Source of the DNA: Candidatus Staskawiczbacteria bacterium RIFOXYD1_FULL_32_13
Lineage (GTDB): Bacteria > Patescibacteriota > Minisyncoccia > Minisyncoccales > Staskawiczbacteraceae
Assembly (NCBI GenBank): GCA_001820485.1
Contig: MHPU01000026.1
Location: forward strand, 17,873 to 64,693
Direction: 5' to 3'
Length of the DNA stretch: 46,821 bases
Under the pieces are notes generated by a model. The model was not told the origin of the DNA. It worked only from the letters and a program-made list of their open reading frames with translations, and did no database searches. Shown here piece by piece: positions 30,922-39,081 of the stretch (positions within the stretch are counted from its first letter, which is position 1; each line of letters starts with the position of its first letter). Position numbers and translations under genes: made by a program.

Positions 30922-30993
30922 TGCCCTCGGTAGGAGTCGAACCTGCATTACAACGTCCGCAACGTTGCGTCCTATCCATTGAACGACGAGGGC
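30922..30993 (-). tRNA. tRNA-Arg (anticodon GCG by manual fold)
   Basis: Minus strand GCCCTCG..GTTC-AATGGATA-GGAC..CAACG-TTGCGGA-CGTTG..GCAGG-TTCGACT-CCTAC-CGAGGGC-A. Cloverleaf with one C-A mismatch in the T stem. No encoded CCA. Confidence 0.75.
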
Positions 30994-30996
30994 TAA

Positions 30997-31018
30997 ATTC
31001 TGCGTAGAGGATTAAACC
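30997..31018. repeat. Degenerate direct repeat of the tRNA-Ser(GCU) 3' end plus trailer (att-remnant candidate)
   Basis: ATTCTGCGTAGAGG(----)ATTAAACC compared with ATTCTGCGGAGAGGGTGGGATTTGAACC at 38760-38787. The first 14 nt match 13/14. It lies 3 nt from the tRNA-Arg 5' end. Confidence 0.5.
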
Positions 31019-31112
31019 AAATTAGAACCTCTATTGAGGAAGAAATCCAATCCACTATTTAAAATCTTATCATAAAATCAATAAGAAAGAAAATTGATAT
31101 AATTTTTTTTGA

Positions 31113-31631
31113 CTATTTACCAACCAATTGACAGTTTCCATCTCTAAATTTATTACCAGCTATTATTTTTTGCATTTCTTCAGAATTAAAATCATTCCCA
31201 TTTTTAAATACCTCATCAAGAGCTTCTTCTTCACTAAGACTATGTATCCTTCCAAGAATAAACTCCTCTGTCGGTCCTTGAAGTGATAGTGTTACGCCTA
31301 TAGGAACTTCACTAGAAATATCTTTTTGCTCTATTTTATCAGCTTTTAATGCCTTTAAAAATGTTTGACCTTTAGAATAACCGAATAAAAATAATCTTTC
31401 TGCTTCATTTGTATCATTAATATGCGAAGCCCAAACTGAACAAGAAAAAGCACCCCACATCTGAGATCCCATTATAGCATATTCTTTTGAGCTTAATGTA
31501 AGAGCAGTATTTTTTTGTTCAAAATTTGTTATTTCAGAACTCGGACTCTTATAAAACGATAACCAAACACTGCTAACAATTATTGCTGTAATAGAAATTG
31601 CCACTACTATTTCGATTTTTTTGGATTGCAT
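31113..31631 (-). CDS. Membrane-anchored hypothetical protein
   Basis: N-terminal TM segment (IVVAISITAIIVSSVWL). No recognised motif. Confidence 0.4.
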   Translation of the reverse strand: MQSKKIEIVVAISITAIIVSSVWLSFYKSPSSEITNFEQKNTALTLSSKEYAIMGSQMWGAFSCSVWASHINDTNEAERLFLFGYSKGQTFLKALKADKIEQKDISSEVPIGVTLSLQGPTEEFILGRIHSLSEEEALDEVFKNGNDFNSEEMQKIIAGNKFRDGNCQLVGK

Positions 31632-31723
31632 AAATTATAAAAAGCTTAATTTAATAATTTAGATATATAAATCTAAATAAAATAAAGCTTATATTTAAGA
31701 TTAAATTTTATTCACTTAATAAT

Positions 31724-32224
31724 TTAATTTATTTTTCTAATATTTATAGCTTCCTCCACCGCGTCAGAAATATATTTTGAAATCCATTCATATCTTTCTT
31801 TGCTATTTTCCCCAGAAGGATTATAACATTTTACAATAGATGATAATTTTCTGCCTGTATTGCCATAGCCTATATAATCAAATGGATTATCGCCTCTTTC
31901 AGTAATAAATCCTTTACTATTTTTTAAACCATGTATGTATATTCCAACAACGCCCATTCCCTTATCCCATGACTTTATTATTTCATAATTTATCCATTTT
32001 CTATTTGCAGTTTGATTCCCAACAAGAACAATTGTACATGATCTATAATCCATTTGATTATTTATCCACCTCTTAATTGCTTCATCTTTACCTGCTTTAA
32101 TTTTCTCCCAATCATTATCAGGTGCTGGCTTATTTCCCTCAATGACGCCTATATTGCGAACCATTGATGCACGCCAACAATCAGGGCTATAGTGAAAACT
32201 ATAAAATACTTGTCTTTTTGCCAT
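31724..32224 (-). CDS. TIR-like domain protein (DUF1863/MTH538 type, Thoeris ThsB-like)
   Basis: MAKRQVFYSFHYSPDCWRASMVRN..., TIVLVGNQTANRKWINYEI (conserved Glu) and GDNPFDYIGY. This pattern matches my recollection of ThsB-type TIR proteins. Confidence 0.7.
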   Translation of the reverse strand: MAKRQVFYSFHYSPDCWRASMVRNIGVIEGNKPAPDNDWEKIKAGKDEAIKRWINNQMDYRSCTIVLVGNQTANRKWINYEIIKSWDKGMGVVGIYIHGLKNSKGFITERGDNPFDYIGYGNTGRKLSSIVKCYNPSGENSKERYEWISKYISDAVEEAINIRKIN

Positions 32225-32228
32225 ATTT

Positions 32229-32630
32229 TTAATTTATTAAATATGTAATTAATATCATAATAAAAATTAATACACCATAAAACCACAATAATGTAGAAGA
32301 AAACATTGAATATGCCCAACTATTTCTATCTATACTTTTATATTTTTCTATATCCATCGAAAAATCAATATCCTTTTCATTTAATTTCCTAACATGATTA
32401 TATAAAGATCTAAATAATCTCTCTTGTGAAAGAAAATAACCATCAAGAATCCAAAATACAATAACTATTAAATACGCAATAAAAATATATTCTTTATTTA
32501 TAGGTTGTGTAGACCATGCAAAAAGAGCAGTAATAATCGTTATAACCCAACCTTTCAAGAAAAATAAATTACCAGCCATTCTATCTATAATGTTTTGTAT
32601 AAACTCTAAATGTTTTTGTTTGTTTTCCAT
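32229..32630 (-). CDS. Small 3-TM membrane protein (candidate effector; SLATT-like is a hypothesis)
   Basis: Amphipathic N-terminus HLEFIQNIIDRMAGN. TM segments at about residues 22-40, 48-67 and 111-131. FWILDGYFLSQERLFRSLYNHV follows TM2. Its stop is 4 nt before the TIR gene ATG. Confidence 0.5.
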   Translation of the reverse strand: MENKQKHLEFIQNIIDRMAGNLFFLKGWVITIITALFAWSTQPINKEYIFIAYLIVIVFWILDGYFLSQERLFRSLYNHVRKLNEKDIDFSMDIEKYKSIDRNSWAYSMFSSTLLWFYGVLIFIMILITYLIN

Positions 32631-32926
32631 AAAATAAAAAGTATTTTATAATATTTATTAACTTATATAAGTATATTTTATCTTATATTATTCTACTTGT
32701 TTTATTATAAAAATACAAATTATAAAGCTTTATAAGTGGCTTATAGGGCTTTATCTTAAATTGGCTTGCTTTCTTTTTATCCTTTGTTATTAGATAAATT
32801 ATAAAATTTATAGGTACACCCTCTAATCTTAAAAAATGCTGTTATATATGTTATAAAAATATACTTAAGAAAACTCAAAAAGGCATAGACAATCTAGAGA
32901 ATCTCTAATAGTTAAGAAGTCTTTGC

Positions 32927-32950
32927 AAAAATCGGCTTAAGCCGATTTTT
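32927..32950. terminator. Perfect 24-bp palindromic hairpin with A/T tracts (bidirectional terminator)
   Basis: AAAAATCGGCTT|AAGCCGATTTTT. It overlaps the stop codon of 32937..33218. Confidence 0.65.
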
Positions 32951-33218
32951 GTTTCTTTTCGTTTAACCAATAAATTGCATAGCTAATAAGCCCGACATCA
33001 ATAATCAATTTAATGCCATTATACCTGCTATGACACAAACCATCGGGTTCTTGGCTTTGTGATAAATACCCCGCTAGATCACTATTTTTTTGTTCTACGG
33101 CAGTTTGCAACATAATATTACAGACAGAATTTTTTTCATGCACATCATAAAAACCCCAAACAAGGTGAACAATAGAGCTTGTTAAAATAGTAATATAAAA
33201 TAATTTATTCCAATTCAT
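32937..33218 (-). CDS. Small membrane protein (93 aa), unknown
   Basis: Hydrophobic N-terminal and C-terminal segments. Preceded by a long, structured, GC-richer leader. Confidence 0.4.
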   Translation of the reverse strand: MNWNKLFYITILTSSIVHLVWGFYDVHEKNSVCNIMLQTAVEQKNSDLAGYLSQSQEPDGLCHSRYNGIKLIIDVGLISYAIYWLNEKKQKSA

Positions 33219-33526
33219 ATTTAGTAAAATTTACTAATAATTATACAAATTGTCGCCTTTCGACCTAAACAAAAAGGGACAACCTTACTTCTGGTCGCCC
33301 CACAATTTTTGCCCCAAAGGGTTCCAATCATGAGCAGTTTCAGGTTGCCCCTTATTACTCGTGATTGGAAAACACAAAAACAGACCTCTTTGGGAAATAT
33401 AAATTGTAGAGCGACACTTTTAATATATCACACAAATAAATCCGTGTAAAATCAAAAATTATTTTAATCATTTTCTTTATTCAAATATTTTCTTTGTGTT
33501 CGTTATCTTGGGGGGAAAATCGTGAC

Positions 33527-33592
33527 GACTGCCGATAGGCGGTCGTTTGTCTGCCGATAGGCAGACGTTTGTCTGCCGATAGGCAGATAATA
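33527..33592. repeat. Three tandem 22-bp iteron-like units, each a CTGCC-GATA-GGCAG hairpin
   Basis: GACTGCCGATAGGCGGTCGTTT / GTCTGCCGATAGGCAGACGTTT / GTCTGCCGATAGGCAGATAATA, with an exact 22-bp period. Confidence 0.8.
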
Positions 33593-34324
33593 TGAGTTGC
33601 AGTAGCTTAAAAAACACTTTGCTTTGCTTAATTAATTAAGGCGAGGGGTGTATCCACCCTTCGCCACGATTGCCCCCAACAAAAGCCAGCCAACGCATTA
33701 TTTTACAATCACTATTTAAAAGAGAAAATCCTAAAAGGAAATTTTTATTTTATTATTCTCTTATAAATAGTGATAGACTTTTTTTGTTGCCGAAAAACGC
33801 TTGATTGAAAAATAGGCAACCAGAAAATATCACACAAAATCGCTTCGCTATCAAATCACGCTGAAGCGCCATTTGATTTTTTATGTGATATTTTCTGCCT
33901 TTTTTTCAATCTTCGCTTTTCTCAAAGATTTTTCCTCTTACAGAGAAAATTCTTTCAGAAATTTTCGGCTAATCAAAAAAAATCCCTGCAAAATAAACGC
34001 CAACAGCATTAAAAAATATATCCGATTATCGCATATATTTTTTAAGATCTGCTGTTGGCTTGCTTTCTCTCCACCTTGACCCAATACATCTATGCCTTTA
34101 AAGGGCTATTATAAAGGCATAGAATGAATGTATTGCGTCAAGGTAGTAGAATGGCTGGCTTTTGTTGGGGGCAATCGTGGCGAAGGGTGGATACACCCCT
34201 CGCCTTAATTAATTAAGCAAAGCAAAGTGTTTTTAATTTCAATGTTTTAACCCACCCTACCAGAATTAAGGCATTAAAAATATTTTTAATTACAAGTGTT
34301 TTTTAAGCTACTGCAACTCATATT

Positions 34325-34364
34325 ATCTGCCTATCGGCAGACAAACGACCGCCTATCGGCAGTC
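34325..34364. repeat. Two inverted-orientation copies of the 22-bp iteron-like unit (right arm)
   Basis: TCTGCCTATCGGCAGACAAACGACCGCCTATCGGCAGTC is the reverse complement of left-arm units 2 and 1. Confidence 0.8.
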
Positions 34365-34495
34365 GTCACGATTTTCCCCCCAAGATAACGAACACAAAGA
34401 AAATATTTGAATAAAGAAGATGACGGAAAAAATATGTTTTCAAATTATATGATAATCGTATAGACCAGGGGGAGGATACCAATGGGGCAACTTTA

Positions 34496-34524
34496 TTGAC
34501 AATTTATCTTTAAAATAGAATAAT
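34496..34524 (+). promoter_or_regulatory. Promoter candidate for the plus-strand module
   Basis: TTGACA at 34496-34501, a 17-nt spacer and AATAAT at 34519-34524 (alternatively TAGAAT). It sits upstream of the AbrB-like gene. Confidence 0.45.
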
Positions 34525-34550
34525 AGAGGCAAATAAATCAAAATAGTAAA

Positions 34551-34877
34551 ATGTTAAAAATTCGTAAATTACAATATATTGGGAAACAATATCTTTTAAA
34601 TGTGCCAGTTGAAATAATAAAAGAGGCAAAATTTAAAAAAGGCGACTATTTAGAGATAATGCAAGGCCAAAATAGCAACTTTTCTATTAGAAAAATTGCT
34701 GAAAATGATACACCAAGGGTAAAGGTAACCCTAGAATCGCTTAAAAATGAAGCTGTTGCCCTTGCTGGATTAATAAATGCCTTAAGATCTGCCCTGCCGT
34801 CTGCCGAGTTCTCGTTCCGGTTGGCTCAATTTTCTCATGTTCAAGCGAAAATAAGAAAATTGGAAAAGAAGAAGTAA
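34551..34877 (+). CDS. AbrB/SpoVT/MazE-type DNA-binding protein
   Basis: N-terminal KLQYIGKQYLLNVPVEIIKEAKFKKGDYLEI follows the swapped-hairpin (looped-hinge helix) pattern. Confidence 0.55.
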   Translation: MLKIRKLQYIGKQYLLNVPVEIIKEAKFKKGDYLEIMQGQNSNFSIRKIAENDTPRVKVTLESLKNEAVALAGLINALRSALPSAEFSFRLAQFSHVQAKIRKLEKKK

Positions 34878-34907
34878 AAAATATTAAAAAGTAATGAAAA
34901 AGTAAAA

Positions 34908-35669
34908 ATGGCTATTAAAATTAATGCAGAAAACCAGAAGACAAAGGATTTTCTTGCATATATTGTTAAAAATATTGCTAAAAAACAAAGTCTTAAACAA
35001 TATGACGAGGTTTTAGTTGAAATACAAAAAGGCAAAACGCCTTTTCCTGAATTTAAGAAATATGATCATGGGTTGGGCAGTGACTATGACGCTTTAGAAA
35101 TGCAATGGAAGTCAAATCCAAAGTATAATGAAAAAGCAATCTTAATAGCTAAATACCTAAACGAAAACTTTGAGAATAGTGCAATTACCTCAACACCGAA
35201 ACAAGATAAAAATAAACCACTAACTTTTATAATTACGATTGTTATTAGTAACCCTTTTGAAATTTTAAAAATATATCAAAAATTAAATACTAAAAATGAA
35301 CTAAAAAAAATAATATTAAAAAATGAAAAACAGAGCAATAAAGATATTTCTAAAATTGAACTATATCTTAATCAAATCGGTGATTTATGGAGAGAACCAA
35401 AAATCAAATATTGTTATCATATGGGAGAAAAAAATGATAGGCATAAAATTTTTCGTTACCTTGTAGAAAATAAGGGATACCAAAATACTAATGATATTGC
35501 ATGCTTTCTTGGCGATAAAAAAGAGCAAGTTATAAGGACAGAAATAAAAAAAATTAAAGATAAAGCATCATATTTTCTTAGTATTAAAAACTCTGATTTA
35601 ATAGAATCTAGGAAAGGGAGCGGTTATAAAATAAACCCAAAATATCATATAAAAATAACAATTCTCTGA
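34908..35669 (+). CDS. Hypothetical protein with C-terminal OmpR/CadC-like winged-helix
   Basis: The C-terminus IFRYLVENKGYQNTNDIACFLG...VIRTEIKKIKDK...LIESRKGSGYKIN resembles a trans_reg_C domain. Confidence 0.35.
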   Translation: MAIKINAENQKTKDFLAYIVKNIAKKQSLKQYDEVLVEIQKGKTPFPEFKKYDHGLGSDYDALEMQWKSNPKYNEKAILIAKYLNENFENSAITSTPKQDKNKPLTFIITIVISNPFEILKIYQKLNTKNELKKIILKNEKQSNKDISKIELYLNQIGDLWREPKIKYCYHMGEKNDRHKIFRYLVENKGYQNTNDIACFLGDKKEQVIRTEIKKIKDKASYFLSIKNSDLIESRKGSGYKINPKYHIKITIL

Positions 35670-35704
35670 TATTCCCCTGCTCATGTTAATAAGTTTTGCT
35701 TATT

Positions 35705-35732
35705 ACAGCTCTATTTGAGCTGTTTTTTGTTT
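35705..35732 (+). terminator. Intrinsic terminator
   Basis: ACAGCTC-TATTT-GAGCTGT followed by TTTTTGTTT. Confidence 0.7.
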
Positions 35733-35789
35733 ACAAAAGATATCAAAGGATGATGTAAGGAATAGGTAATAATTTGGTAAAACTACGGC

Positions 35790-35978
35790 ATGCTATCAAA
35801 AGAAGCCATTGAGCAATACAAAAAAATCTACAGGAATGCTTATAATATTGAGCTGAATGAAAACGAGGCCACAGAAATGGCCAACGATCTTTTTGAATTT
35901 ATGCGAGCAGTTTATTTGCCTACAGGCGAAGAGGAATTAATAACAACACAAGAAAATGGAACAAAAAATACAAATTAG
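35790..35978 (+). CDS. Small helical protein (62 aa), unknown (excisionase/RDF role not excluded)
   Basis: Intact ORF that overlaps the next gene by 23 nt. Confidence 0.35.
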   Translation: MLSKEAIEQYKKIYRNAYNIELNENEATEMANDLFEFMRAVYLPTGEEELITTQENGTKNTN

Positions 35979-36249
35979 TGAAATTCAAATAGTACCCATT
36001 AAACCACAAGAGGGGCTGATTGCTTTTGCTTCTTTTGTTTTAGATAAAAAATATTATATTGGCTCGGTTGCTATTTATACTAGACTTAATGGCGAGGGTT
36101 TTCGGCTTGCCTACCCAACTAAAAAGATTGGCGACAGAGGTATTAATATTTTTTATCCTATAAATTCTGAAATAGGCAACGCAATAGAAAAAGAAGTAAA
36201 TAAAAAAGTTAATGAAATATTTTATGAAAGAACAAACAAGGCAATTTAG
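35956..36249 (+). CDS. SpoVG-family nucleic-acid-binding protein
   Basis: IQIVPIKPQEGLIAFASFVLDKKYYIGSVAIY...FRLAYPTKK...IFYPINSEIGNAIEKEV aligns to the SpoVG pattern (..AfASitLD..fvv.dirv..G..G.fvamPs.k......i.hPIns..r..i). Confidence 0.7.
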   Translation: MEQKIQISEIQIVPIKPQEGLIAFASFVLDKKYYIGSVAIYTRLNGEGFRLAYPTKKIGDRGINIFYPINSEIGNAIEKEVNKKVNEIFYERTNKAI

Positions 36250-36997
36250 CCAACTATGGGATGATGGAATAAAGTCAGGAATTGTGGGAAAAATAGGAAC
36301 GCAAGTTTTCGCCTTGTTAGTGGTTTTAGCACCATTTATGAATGAGCGTGGCGAGTGTTATCCAACAGAAAATACTCTCGCATTCATTCTACATAAATCT
36401 ATACCCAGCATTATTAAAATGGTAAGTAAAGCTAAAAAGACAATTTATAATGGTGAAGCAGTTTTGAAAGTTAGGCAACAAAAAAGAGTAGACAATGGCA
36501 AAATATTATGGGGGAGCAATTTTTATACTATTTCAAAATCTATAAGAAGTGATCTATTAAGTCGTTATGTTTCCGTAGATAAAAACTTATCTACGGAAAA
36601 TAAAAGCAATTTGAGATCAAAAACACTATTACCGCCAATATCTTTTCCGCCTACGGAAGAAGTATCAACTAACGATAGCCGTTCGTTAAACCATATATTT
36701 ACGAACGATAATAAAAAATCGCTCATAAATATAAATGGCTATAACGAAATTTCCCTAATGGAATTTAGAAAAACAATAAAAAACGAAGTTGATATGAAAT
36801 GTTACGAGATAGCAGAATGGCTTGGCGAAAAAAATATAAATTTTATCCTTAGCGCTTTAAATGATAATAAGTGTGGAATGCACGGCATTGAGCATGCATA
36901 TAGAAAAGTTAAAGATTATGTTGGTGATGGCAATGTGAAAAGCAAACCCAAACTTTTTAATTGGCATATTCAGAATTATAAAAAAGGGAAAAGATAA
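36212..36997 (+). CDS. HTH-domain protein, plasmid/phage replication-initiator-like
   Basis: FALLVVLAPFMNERGECYPTENTLAFILHKSIPSIIKMVSKAKK resembles the HTH_36-type N-terminus of replication/replisome-organizer proteins. Confidence 0.45.
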   Translation: MKYFMKEQTRQFSQLWDDGIKSGIVGKIGTQVFALLVVLAPFMNERGECYPTENTLAFILHKSIPSIIKMVSKAKKTIYNGEAVLKVRQQKRVDNGKILWGSNFYTISKSIRSDLLSRYVSVDKNLSTENKSNLRSKTLLPPISFPPTEEVSTNDSRSLNHIFTNDNKKSLININGYNEISLMEFRKTIKNEVDMKCYEIAEWLGEKNINFILSALNDNKCGMHGIEHAYRKVKDYVGDGNVKSKPKLFNWHIQNYKKGKR

Positions 36998-37040
36998 ATA
37001 TTCATATTGCATTTTAAAAAGTAATAGTGATATAATAAAA

Positions 37041-37153
37041 TTGTTGAGGATAATTCGCTTGGAAAAGGTATTTTATTTATAAAATAGAATATTAAAAGGG
37101 GCTGAAACGCGAGTTATCCTCAACAAATAACTTTTTCCGTTTCAGTCCCTTTT
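37041..37153 (+). promoter_or_regulatory. Interleaved inverted repeats (A-B-A'-B') in the recombinase leader
   Basis: A at 37041-37058 pairs with A' at 37109-37126 (17/18 matches). B at 37094-37109 pairs with B' at 37138-37153 (15/16 matches). Both mismatches are G-U on the plus strand. Confidence 0.5.
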
Positions 37154-37178
37154 AGTATAGTAAAAATAAAATAAAATT

Positions 37179-38801
37179 ATGAAACAATTTAATGAAAGAA
37201 TAAATTATATTTTGTATGCTCGCAAATCTTCTGAAGAAGATAATCGGCAAATGCTTTCGCTAGATTCACAAGAGGGCGAATTAAAAAAAATTGCTGAAAG
37301 AGATAATTTAGAAATTATTAAAATATTCCGCGAAGCACGCTCGGCAAAAGAGCCATACAATAGACCAATATTTTCTGAAATGGTAAAAATGATTGAAGCA
37401 GGAAAAGCTAACGGGATTTTATGTTGGAAATTAGACAGATTATCTAGAAATGCTGTTGAGGAAGGAATAATCAAACACTTATTACAGAAAAATAAAATCA
37501 AAATCATAAGAACGCCCGACAGAGATTACAGGCCAGAAGATAACGCATTAATAGCTTCTGTTGAGTTTGGCATGGCTAATCAATATATTAGAGATTTAAG
37601 CGTAAATGTTAAAAGAGGACTAATAAGCAAAGCTGAAAGTGGATTATTCCCCAACTTTGCACCACTTGGATATTTGAATAATCCACTTGATCCAAAAGGC
37701 AGAAAACAAATTATAAAAGATCCCGAAAGGTTTGATTTAGTGCGTAAAATGTTTGACCTTGTTTTAAGTGAGTACAGGACACCTGTGGAGGTTTGGCGAA
37801 TAGCACACAATGACTGGAAAATGAAAAATCCAAAAGGTAAATTAATTAGTCGATCAACTACTTACCGAATACTAACCAATACTTTATATTCTGGAATCTT
37901 TGAATTTCCTGTTGGCAGTGGAAATTGGCATAAAGGAAAACATGAGGCAGTTATAACTATTGAAGAATATGACAAAATACAAATTATTCTAGGCAAGAAA
38001 GGAAAACCCCGACCACACAATCATATTTTTGCTTTTACAGGATTAATGAAATGTGGAAGTTGTGGGGCTACAATTACAGCAGAGCAGAAAATAAAAAGGC
38101 AGAAAAATGGAAACATACATCAATATACTTATTATCACTGCACTAAAAAGCTAAACCCTAATTGCATTGAAAAGTATATTGAAGAAAAAATATTAATTAA
38201 ACAAATTGTAAATAAAATTGATAAAATTAGTATAAGCCCAGAATTTCACGCTTGGGGGCTTGATTGGCTTAAAAAAGATATTCTAAAAAATATATCTTTG
38301 AAAAACAAAATAATAAATAGCAGAGAAAAGCAGATTGCAGAAATTGAAAAACAATCGTCAGAATTATTAAATCTTTTACTTAGAAAAATTATCAGCGAGG
38401 AAGATTATCAGAATAAAAAAAGTGAACTAGCAAAGGAAAAGGCAAAACTTGAAATTACGGGAAATAATAATAATGACAAAATACAATTACTATTTGAGAA
38501 AACAGCAGAATATTTTGATCTTGCCAAAGACGCCAAAAATGAATTTCTTAATGGCGACATTAATAAACGAAAATGTATTGTTACCAAACTTGGCTCGAAC
38601 CCCTCAATTTCAGAGAGAATATTCAGTATTTGTATCAAAAAAGCCCTTTTGCCTTTTGAAAACATATCAAAAGAGATAAAGGGTATTTATGACAGGTTAG
38701 AACCTACGAAAATCACTATAAATAGTCGGGAACTAAACAAGCTATATGCAAAAAATCTCATTCTGCGGAGAGGGTGGGATTTGAACCCACGAGCCCCATG
38801 A
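37179..38801 (+). CDS. Large serine recombinase (integrase)
   Basis: Resolvase-type N-terminus YILYARKSSEEDNRQMLSLDSQ (Ser nucleophile), a recombinase domain, zinc ribbon CGSCGATITAE...YYHC and a coiled-coil tail. The last 36 nt lie inside tRNA-Ser. Confidence 0.85.
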   Translation: MKQFNERINYILYARKSSEEDNRQMLSLDSQEGELKKIAERDNLEIIKIFREARSAKEPYNRPIFSEMVKMIEAGKANGILCWKLDRLSRNAVEEGIIKHLLQKNKIKIIRTPDRDYRPEDNALIASVEFGMANQYIRDLSVNVKRGLISKAESGLFPNFAPLGYLNNPLDPKGRKQIIKDPERFDLVRKMFDLVLSEYRTPVEVWRIAHNDWKMKNPKGKLISRSTTYRILTNTLYSGIFEFPVGSGNWHKGKHEAVITIEEYDKIQIILGKKGKPRPHNHIFAFTGLMKCGSCGATITAEQKIKRQKNGNIHQYTYYHCTKKLNPNCIEKYIEEKILIKQIVNKIDKISISPEFHAWGLDWLKKDILKNISLKNKIINSREKQIAEIEKQSSELLNLLLRKIISEEDYQNKKSELAKEKAKLEITGNNNNDKIQLLFEKTAEYFDLAKDAKNEFLNGDINKRKCIVTKLGSNPSISERIFSICIKKALLPFENISKEIKGIYDRLEPTKITINSRELNKLYAKNLILRRGWDLNPRAP

Positions 38802-38851
38802 CAGGGCGCAGGTTAGCAACCTGCTGCTTTGAACCGCTCAGCCACCTCTCC
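38766..38851 (-). tRNA. tRNA-Ser (anticodon GCU), long variable arm
   Basis: Minus strand GGAGAGG-TG-GCT-GAGCGGTTCAA-AGC-A-GCAGG-TTGCTAA-CCTGC-(variable arm)-GTGGG-TTCAAAT-CCCAC-CCTCTCC-G. No encoded CCA. Confidence 0.85.
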
Positions 38852-38952: not shown

Positions 38953-39037
38953 GGAGGAGTCCTATAGCGGCTATTAGAACAGTCTTGAAAACTGTGACCT
39001 CGTAAGGGGTTCGTGGGTTCGAGTCCCACCTCCTCCG
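38953..39037 (+). tRNA. tRNA-Ser (anticodon UGA), long variable arm
   Basis: GGAGGAG...ACAGT-CTTGAAA-ACTGT-(ACCTC-GTAA-GGGGT)-GTGGG-TTCGAGT-CCCAC-CTCCTCC-G. Confidence 0.8.
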
Positions 39038-39081
39038 CCGTAACTTTTGTTCATTCATCACTTTTGAAAAAGGAGCATTTC

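Follow-up and report, generated by a model that had tools for sequence, protein, structure and literature searches.

A large serine integrase gene ending inside a convergent tRNA-Ser gene as the probable attachment site of a small island in a Staskawiczbacteria genome

In the 46,821-nt stretch of DNA analysed here (referred to as the window; Candidatus Staskawiczbacteria bacterium RIFOXYD1_FULL_32_13, contig MHPU01000026.1, positions 17,873 to 64,693, G+C content about 30%), the open reading frame (ORF) of a large serine recombinase (LSR) ends inside the intact gene of tRNA-Ser(GCU). We consider it highly probable that this overlap represents the attachment site attR of a 7.8-kb element, whose own large serine integrase placed it at the 3′ boundary of the tRNA gene. 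An original prediction, made from the sequence alone, had described a 36-nt overlap of the recombinase gene with a convergent tRNA-Ser(GCU) gene, and its coordinates (38766-38801), the convergent orientation and the intactness of the tRNA gene all proved exact. The overlap amounts to 36 nt by Rfam and to 37 nt by ARAGORN, which extends the tRNA gene by 1 base (38765..38851). Its 11 terminal codons and the stop (C-terminus ..LILRRGWDLNPRAP, as given by translation) are the antisense of the tRNA discriminator, the 3′ strand of the acceptor stem and the T-arm.

The recombinase itself is a distant yet clear member of the LSR family. Its Pfam domains follow the canonical order of Resolvase (PF00239, E 8.9e-19), Recombinase (PF07508) and Zn_ribbon_recom (PF13408), and PHROGs assigns it to the integrases, with a weaker match to “DNA invertase”. 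Across 30 aligned homologues, the catalytic residues R15 and S17 are invariant together with Y13, R87, R90 and the DRLxR motif, as are the cysteines C292, C295, C321 and C329. The AlphaFold2 model (pLDDT 77.5) features a coiled coil with long helices at about residues 354-458, and the tail (about 508-540) is modelled at low confidence. The best Foldseek matches were the full-length integrases of SPbeta, Bxb1 and PhiC31 and the Listeria LI LSR-DNA complex (E 1e-19 to 1e-11), all at an identity of only 12-18%, and further PDB matches include the catalytic domains of TP901-1 and TnpX. The closest named relative of the integrase is found in a metagenome-assembled genome (MAG) of Candidatus Staskawiczbacteria, and contigs identical to the window occur in Rifle-type groundwater metagenomes and in the assembly GCA_000989435.1.

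The partner of this junction lies at the far end of the island, 4 nt off the 5′ end of a tRNA-Arg(GCG) gene, where positions 30997-31010 (ATTCTGCGTAGAGG) match positions 38760-38773 (ATTCTGCGGAGAGG). Both sites share the core ATTCTGCG (30997-31004 in attL, 38760-38767 in attR) and carry a T-arm box next to it, which is GGATTTGAACC at 38777-38787 in the B′ arm of attR and the mimic ATTAGAACCT at 31021-31030 in the P′ arm of attL. A search for the core (1 mismatch in 12) combined with a shifted GAAC returned this site as the sole candidate in the 37 kb upstream. Here, the DNA encodes an alternative integrase tail, ILRRGLNQIRTSIEEEIQSTI followed by a stop, which belongs to the ..L(D/N)x(V/I)RT.. 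class of the attP-type homologues and, joined to the P arm, would give a protein of 548 amino acids. The presence of an in-frame alternative tail at the other island end therefore defines attL, attR and an island of 7763 bp, and excision is predicted to replace RRGWDLNPRAP by RRGLNQIRTSIEEEIQSTI. Three further claims of the original prediction are supported by these data, namely a crossover inside the 3′ end of the recombinase gene (the tail classes switch at the att core, in agreement with the attL/attR alignment), a partner site within 30990-31030 (the alternative tail starts in frame at 30997) and a C-terminus that would be altered on excision, since homologues lacking the tRNA carry a different conserved tail, which is encoded at attL.

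Before the insertion, the tRNA-Arg(GCG) gene probably stood 8-9 nt downstream of the tRNA-Ser(GCU) gene; it is now located downstream of the minus-strand genes of the element. Moreover, a contig from run X19 carries the left end of the window's element from position 31002 onwards and the segment 33266-33528 in combination with different cargo, and its left end adjoins the tRNA-Ser(UGA) gene of another organism. This other host context therefore places the left boundary independently and indicates past mobility. Six other loci (L014, L023, L025, L067, L071 and L073) show left attachment sites or tandem junctions of this design.

A homologue search with the recombinase gave 2738 matches, and the C-termini of the best 120 diverge into classes after a conserved ..Y(S/A)Q(S/N)PxLLRG. 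In 62 of these 120, the tail reads W/Q/R-DSNP, DSNL or DLNP, which is the antisense T-arm GGTTCGAATCC translated in one frame, while about 33 meet a stop 1-4 codons past the boundary and about 21 continue into the other conserved tail, ..L(D/N)x(V/I)RT(C/S/W)... Integrases of 98% identity on two short contigs of a Staskawiczbacteria MAG (L001/L008) depart from the window's protein exactly after ..ATTCTGCGG (..CTGCGG) and continue as CLLDKVRNYFEQNPND before the stop, with no tRNA at that position. In a scan of one genome per species, we detected at least 580 related loci, mostly in Patescibacteria; 80 of them were fetched, and in at least 47 the end of the ORF is overlapped by a convergent tRNA gene over 10-124 nt. 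The tRNAs concerned comprise 13 identities (Ser, Gln, Asn, Lys, Leu, Arg, Ile, His, Trp, Gly, Glu, Met and Ala), and in all 43 loci where the T-loop could serve as an anchor, the discriminator falls on codon position 1. As a further observation, second LSR genes with 24-35% identity to that of the window (in L011, L026, L059, L075 and L087) also end inside convergent tRNA genes (Arg, Tyr, Asn, His and Asn), with some of the T-arms read in another frame (GFEP/GIEP); the habit of ending in a tRNA gene is thus wider than the window's clade.

A single overlap of this kind could arise by coincidental read-through, with an ORF that meets no stop before the neighbouring tRNA gene and an island that ends elsewhere or owes its position to another mechanism, the overlap being unrelated to any att site. 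The chance of 11 stop-free codons antisense to a tRNA is roughly 0.5, i.e., not improbable when taken alone, and the varying positions of the stop within the tRNA genes of the homologues as well as the low-confidence model of the recombinase tail are compatible with such an origin. However, the overlap is beyond chance because the same arrangement recurs across homologous loci, in the same frame and juxtaposition, at 13 kinds of tRNA and in at least 47 of 80 species. Homologues without a tRNA do not keep the same C-terminal residues, as they should if the overlap were accidental, but change their tail exactly at the boundary, and the opposite end of the window's island encodes the switched tail in frame. 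Read-through is consequently an improbable account of the junction.

The position of the crossover can be narrowed down by the extent of identity between attL and attR, counted from the discriminator. In the window, it spans -6 to +1 (only the 8 nt of ATTCTGCG); in L014 -3 to +3 (7 nt), in L025 -3 to +6 (10 nt) and in L071 -1 to +2, and the tRNA-Asn group is identical to its own attP forms from -3 to +4. The identity blocks of the four clean attL/attR pairs intersect at -1..+1 only, which puts the crossover at the tRNA 3′ boundary; the tRNA body, including the 11 terminal codons, is therefore host DNA and constitutes the B′ half-site. The TG at -2,-1 is conserved to 85-95% in the P arms and present in 3 of 4 B arms. 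Strand exchange would take place within TGCG (38764-38767), at or beside the discriminator. The contribution of the element would be only the 3′ trailer of the tRNA, plus the CCA where this is encoded (as in L019, L073, L079 and L081).

The original prediction had also suggested that the element supplies the 3′ portion of the tRNA. Such a scenario, with a crossover deep in the gene as in the islands of tyrosine integrases, would account for an intact tRNA that overlaps an element-encoded gene, and attL retains AGAGG after one mismatch (8+5 nt), which could be taken as a faint echo of the acceptor stem. Yet this part of the prediction is not supported: a displaced copy of the tRNA 3′ end is missing from the window, where the 37-nt end is single even when up to 3 mismatches are allowed, attL departs from the tRNA at discriminator +2, 1 base into the acceptor stem, the four pairs agree on -1..+1 alone, and the attP-type forms carry a shifted T-arm mimic and no tRNA 3′ end. 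We therefore regard a crossover deep in the tRNA gene as very unlikely.

Further support for an insertion at the 3′ boundary by a serine integrase comes from the spacing of the two T-arm boxes. The G of GAAC lies at +17 from the discriminator in the tRNA (B′) and at +22 in the P′ mimic, the latter position being kept in every attL or attP form examined. Consistently, when measured without an anchor, an internal box of the gene (U1, see below) is separated from the box that follows by 83/82 bp for 19 attR forms, as against 88 bp for 7 of 7 attP forms. For the LI integrase, Rutherford et al. described the motif of the zinc-ribbon domain (ZD) at positions 16-24 in attP and 11-19 in attB (PMC3783163), and in the family studied here the T-arm motif is likewise located 5 bp nearer to the crossover in attB than in attP. 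The zinc ribbon is presumably the reader of the T-arm motif. Since the GAAC box sits shifted 5 bp outward in the attP forms, the conserved “VRT” of the alternative tail would most simply be the translation of a GT(T/C)(A/C)GAAC T-arm mimic, and not a protein motif.

Taken together, the following course of events appears highly probable. The attP site would be located in the last codons of the integrase gene, with the conserved coding end (..YAKNLIL) as P arm and a P′ arm that encodes a short tail (RGLNQIRTSIEEEIQSTI, then a stop) and bears the T-arm mimic (TTAGAACC), while attB would consist of the tRNA trailer (B arm) and the DNA of acceptor stem and T-arm (B′ arm). The zinc-ribbon domain would read the near-universal T-arm, 5 bp nearer to the crossover in attB than the mimic in attP. 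Integration would keep the tRNA body and swap the trailer only, thereby fusing the integrase ORF to antisense tRNA DNA and leaving the old tail at attL beside tRNA-Arg, and excision would restore the 548-aa protein. While the anatomy, the pattern across the family, the 5-bp shift and the selection on the motifs at the DNA level (see below) can be seen in the sequences, the exact crossover dinucleotide, the assignment of individual domains to individual motifs, mobility at present and any functional consequence of the tail swap we infer from them. Where attP-type tails occur in chromosomal genes, this is accounted for by tandem arrays with a second integrase gene next to the tRNA; such tandem accretion at the same tRNA was seen in L059, L073 and L087.

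Apart from the boxes at the two half-sites, the integrase gene holds two more T-arm-like boxes, U1 (GGTTAGAACCT, codons RLEP) and U2 (GGCTCGAACCC, codons GSNP/GSNL), at fixed positions. The box consensus GG(T/C)T(A/C)GAACC(T) is nearly palindromic, and in 39 regions of 260 nt upstream of the crossover it was counted 49 times, compared with 10 times in 705 kb elsewhere. U1 and U2 are 103 bp apart, and from U1 it is 83 bp to the T-arm of the tRNA or 88 bp to the mimic in attP. Among the codons of this region, several synonymous choices are frozen (TTA in 22/24, GAA in 30/30, CCT in 27/29, AAA in 27/27, TCG in 27/30, AAC in 31/31 and CTC in 25/29), and the ratio of observed to expected codon homogeneity is 2.06 for the last 34 codons versus 1.19 for the body of the gene (Mann-Whitney p = 0.001). 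A one-base shift of U1 in some homologues makes it read VRTS instead of RLEP. Because synonymous sites are frozen and U1 is read in two frames, selection acts here on the nucleic acid.

As a leading guess, U1 and U2 could serve as accessory binding sites of the integrase, which would recall the additional recombinase-binding sites (res) that resolvase-type systems require beside the crossover site; an assignment as mirror-image motifs of the P arm or as a second att centre was rejected, as the distances do not fit. A further, rather speculative option is that these accessory sites together with the tail swap allow the integrase to sense its own integration and so to control directionality or its own expression without a conventional directionality factor, one scaffold reading the universal T-arm and being retargeted among tRNAs by acceptor-stem contacts alone. 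In this scenario, U1 and U2 would share the helical phase of B′ and be offset by half a turn from P′. To our knowledge, no such sensing layer is known for large serine integrases.

Several observations weigh against an att-site origin of the overlap or against its simplest form. Neither the empty site, with tRNA-Arg and tRNA-Ser(GCU) 3-30 nt apart, nor the reconstructed P-P′ junction of the excised form had any match in JGI metagenome contigs, and the missing excision product would equally suit a coincidental read-through. A separate search for junctions covered assembled contigs (Logan), where the AT-rich sequence leads to many spurious joints and the run X19 contig was the one useful result. 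All 24 contigs that hold the flanking 2-hydroxyacid dehydrogenase gene also carry the island, which is thus present in each of the populations sampled, so that mobility of the element at present is putative. Three contigs (L111-L113) were considered as circular attP forms and rejected, as their ends do not overlap and truncate the genes located there. Regarding the sites, a mirrored P′ box (GGTTC) is missing from the P arm at the distance where it would be expected, the logo of this arm showing only AAA(A/G)TCC and TG, and the B arms are unrelated host DNA, so that the usual dyad symmetry of att sites is not found.

Likewise, no recombination directionality factor, which serine integrases need for excision, was recognised among the island proteins by Pfam, PHROG or PADLOC annotation, and the two tRNA-Lys islands L023 and L025 harbour a tyrosine integrase gene (PF00589) with an HTH_17 excisionase-like gene directly upstream of the LSR gene (at 8349-9930 in L023 and 8340-9924 in L025). 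Finally, the attL sides of L023 (2022-2100) and L067 (4070-4135) carry an exact 50-80-nt copy of the integrase gene 3′ end, which stands left of the core and is not predicted by the simple model. These copies may be what is left of an element that occupied the same tRNA before. The L023 copy begins exactly at box U1; its origin by a deletion between the P′ and U1 boxes was discarded, as the left-side sequence does not fit. In the tRNA-His island L071, an internal tRNA-His fragment (GAACCCGTAACGAGAGTGCCAC; 2700-2760) lies about 60 nt left of the attL core, which suggests an older rearrangement at the same tRNA.

The integrase of the window resembles those of Listeria LI/A118, Bxb1, PhiC31 and SPbeta (SprA) in the order of catalytic, recombinase and zinc-ribbon domains and in the coiled coil, and shares with the canonical LSR systems the short att sites, the minimal identity of attP and attB and the 5-bp shift of the motif. 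In contrast to these systems, it has only 12-18% sequence identity to them, its target is a tRNA 3′ boundary, its attP lies inside the ORF and gives rise to two tails, a mirrored motif is missing from the P and B arms, and two extra copies of the motif are present in the gene. Tyrosine-integrase islands of the Islander type have in common with the window's element the site at a tRNA 3′ end, the position of the integrase gene at the tRNA-proximal edge and tandem accretion, but bring along the 3′ part of the tRNA as a copy and leave the displaced fragment as direct repeat, whereas nothing is displaced in the window and the identity is limited to 8 nt.

The attB sites of the myxophage Mx8 overlap the 3′ ends of tRNA genes. 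Its tyrosine integrase gene contains attP, so that int acquires a new 3′ end when the phage integrates (PMC6070905). Both systems thus place attP within the integrase ORF and change the C-terminus on integration, as judged for the window by sequence inference; the enzymes, however, belong to unrelated families (Mx8 Int is a tyrosine recombinase acting via a Holliday junction), and the new tail in the window is antisense tRNA. A functional effect of the tail change is established for Mx8, whereas the swap described here is known from sequence.

A small resolvase-like enzyme is used by the phage phiRSM1. Targeting of tRNA genes has been regarded as a trait of tyrosine integrases. According to one paper, serine integrases are not known to use such targets (PMC4383910), and serine recombinases in tRNA genes are described as rare in another, with phiRSM1 (tRNA-Ser 3′ end) and eight AICEs (actinomycete elements that are both integrative and conjugative) of Mycobacterium (tRNA-Leu) as examples (PMC3218068). 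These share with the window a serine recombinase at a tRNA gene, the comparison being based on their description only, and for neither did we find it reported that attP is located in the ORF of the recombinase, that a T-arm is mimicked or that the family extends over many tRNA identities. In the open-access literature, we found no description of a serine-integrase family with attP in the end of its own ORF, nor of a T-arm mimic, many tRNA identities or internal boxes in such a family.

For the insertion of large DNA into genomes, serine integrases are the principal tools, but they depend on a landing site installed beforehand. In this context, it is relevant that one scaffold reaches the 3′ boundary of at least 13 different tRNAs and leaves them undamaged, apparently via the near-universal T-arm; the family could be a source of integrases for sites that are present in every genome. 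The at least 580 loci, mostly from the candidate phyla radiation (CPR), represent a natural experiment in re-aiming the specificity of serine integrases. Furthermore, what appears as a conserved protein motif would in fact be a DNA site that is translated in passing, which matters for annotation and for the interpretation of C-terminal conservation. The window also illustrates how small defence-carrying islands move among CPR bacteria, a group with little-known mobile elements.

Table 1. Features of the window that are related to the integrated element (positions count from the first base of the window).
Feature	Positions	Strand	Basis or remark
tRNA-Arg(GCG), host flank	30922..30993	-	ARAGORN, Rfam
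attL (B arm, core, P′ arm)	30980..31032	+	Alignment; core search; run X19 left end
In-frame remnant of the predicted excised-form integrase tail	30997..31062	+	Translation; matches attP-type homologues
Integrated element, 7763 bp	31003..38766		attL/attR; cargo annotation
172-aa ORF	31113-31631	-	Island cargo
PDC-M50B, ThsB-like TIR (Toll/interleukin-1 receptor) protein, 166 aa	31724-32224	-	PADLOC E 8e-65; ThsB1 model 1e-67
PDC-M50A, membrane protein, 133 aa	32229-32630	-	PADLOC E 4e-50
93-aa ORF	32937-33218	-	Island cargo
Structured non-coding region with inverted repeats/iterons	33250-34433		Island
108-, 253- and 62-aa ORFs			Island cargo
SpoVG-like protein	35956-36249	+	Island cargo
Helix-turn-helix (HTH) DNA-binding protein	36212-36997	+	Island cargo
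Large serine recombinase (integrase) gene, integrated (attR) form	37179..38801	+	540 aa; ORF and translation, Pfam, PHROG, AF2, Foldseek
Box U2, T-arm-like, in integrase ORF	38592..38602	+	G of GAAC at -169
Box U1, T-arm-like, in integrase ORF	38695..38705	+	G of GAAC at -66
attR (P arm, core, B′ arm)	38741..38790	+	attL/attR alignment, family logo, spacing analysis
Overlap of recombinase ORF and tRNA	38766..38801		11 integrase codons (RRGWDLNPRAP) + stop
tRNA-Ser(GCU), intact	38766..38851	-	Rfam RF00005, 61 bits

The genes carried between the two attachment sites are listed in Table 1. The pair PDC-M50 A+B (31724-32630, minus strand) corresponds to a candidate two-gene anti-phage system of PADLOC. 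Both the GC skew and the coding strand are inverted at about 33.3-38.8 kb, and the LSR is the only recombinase of the window's island, in which no tyrosine recombinase (PF00589) was found. Six islands of the family could be delimited (7.5-9.7 kb), and the integrase alone is common to all of them; the cargo of the others includes a methylase-Mrr fusion, a Cas4/RNase H-like protein, a weak Phage_CRI-like Rep and an extra tyrosine integrase. As IMG/VR contains only two relatives at an identity of at least 35%, the element was not classed as a phage. One attP-form gene is located in a phage-like contig.

The central part of the island is occupied by two inverted repeats of about 235 nt (33458-33692 and 34152-34433, spacer 33693-34151) with 95-100% complementarity, which hold 22-nt tandem units, CTGCCGATAGGC(G/A)G(T/A)CGTTTGT, in a copy number that varies between assemblies. 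This region looks like an iteron- or origin-like part of the element. Four of six metagenome contigs break at the inverted repeats, and all five contigs that span them have the same orientation. Given large repeats with iteron-like 22-mers, assembly breaks at this position and the weaker PHROGs match mentioned above, the recombinase might be conceived mainly as an invertase or resolvase that acts on these repeats (33458-34433) or on a plasmid form, the tRNA adjacency being secondary. The uniform orientation of the five spanning contigs, the full integrase architecture of the LSR and the fact that other islands of the family lack the repeats but retain the tRNA junction speak against this, and we rate such a role as extremely unlikely compared with an integrase acting at the tRNA boundary.

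Directly adjacent, positions 33250-33460 form a G+C-rich, non-coding stretch with an unusually stable predicted fold (-75 kcal/mol and z = -6.7 on the minus strand, z = -4.7 on the plus strand). Within the island, this stretch included, no Rfam family was matched. The segment 33266-33528 is retained with one mismatch in the run X19 variant element of different cargo, and 33250-33460 may represent a structured RNA or a cis-acting site. At the opposite side of the element, positions 38765-38814 and 38989-39038 form a 50-nt inverted repeat (76%) between the divergent genes of tRNA-Ser(GCU) and tRNA-Ser(UGA), which is mere similarity of one tRNA to another and no att feature.

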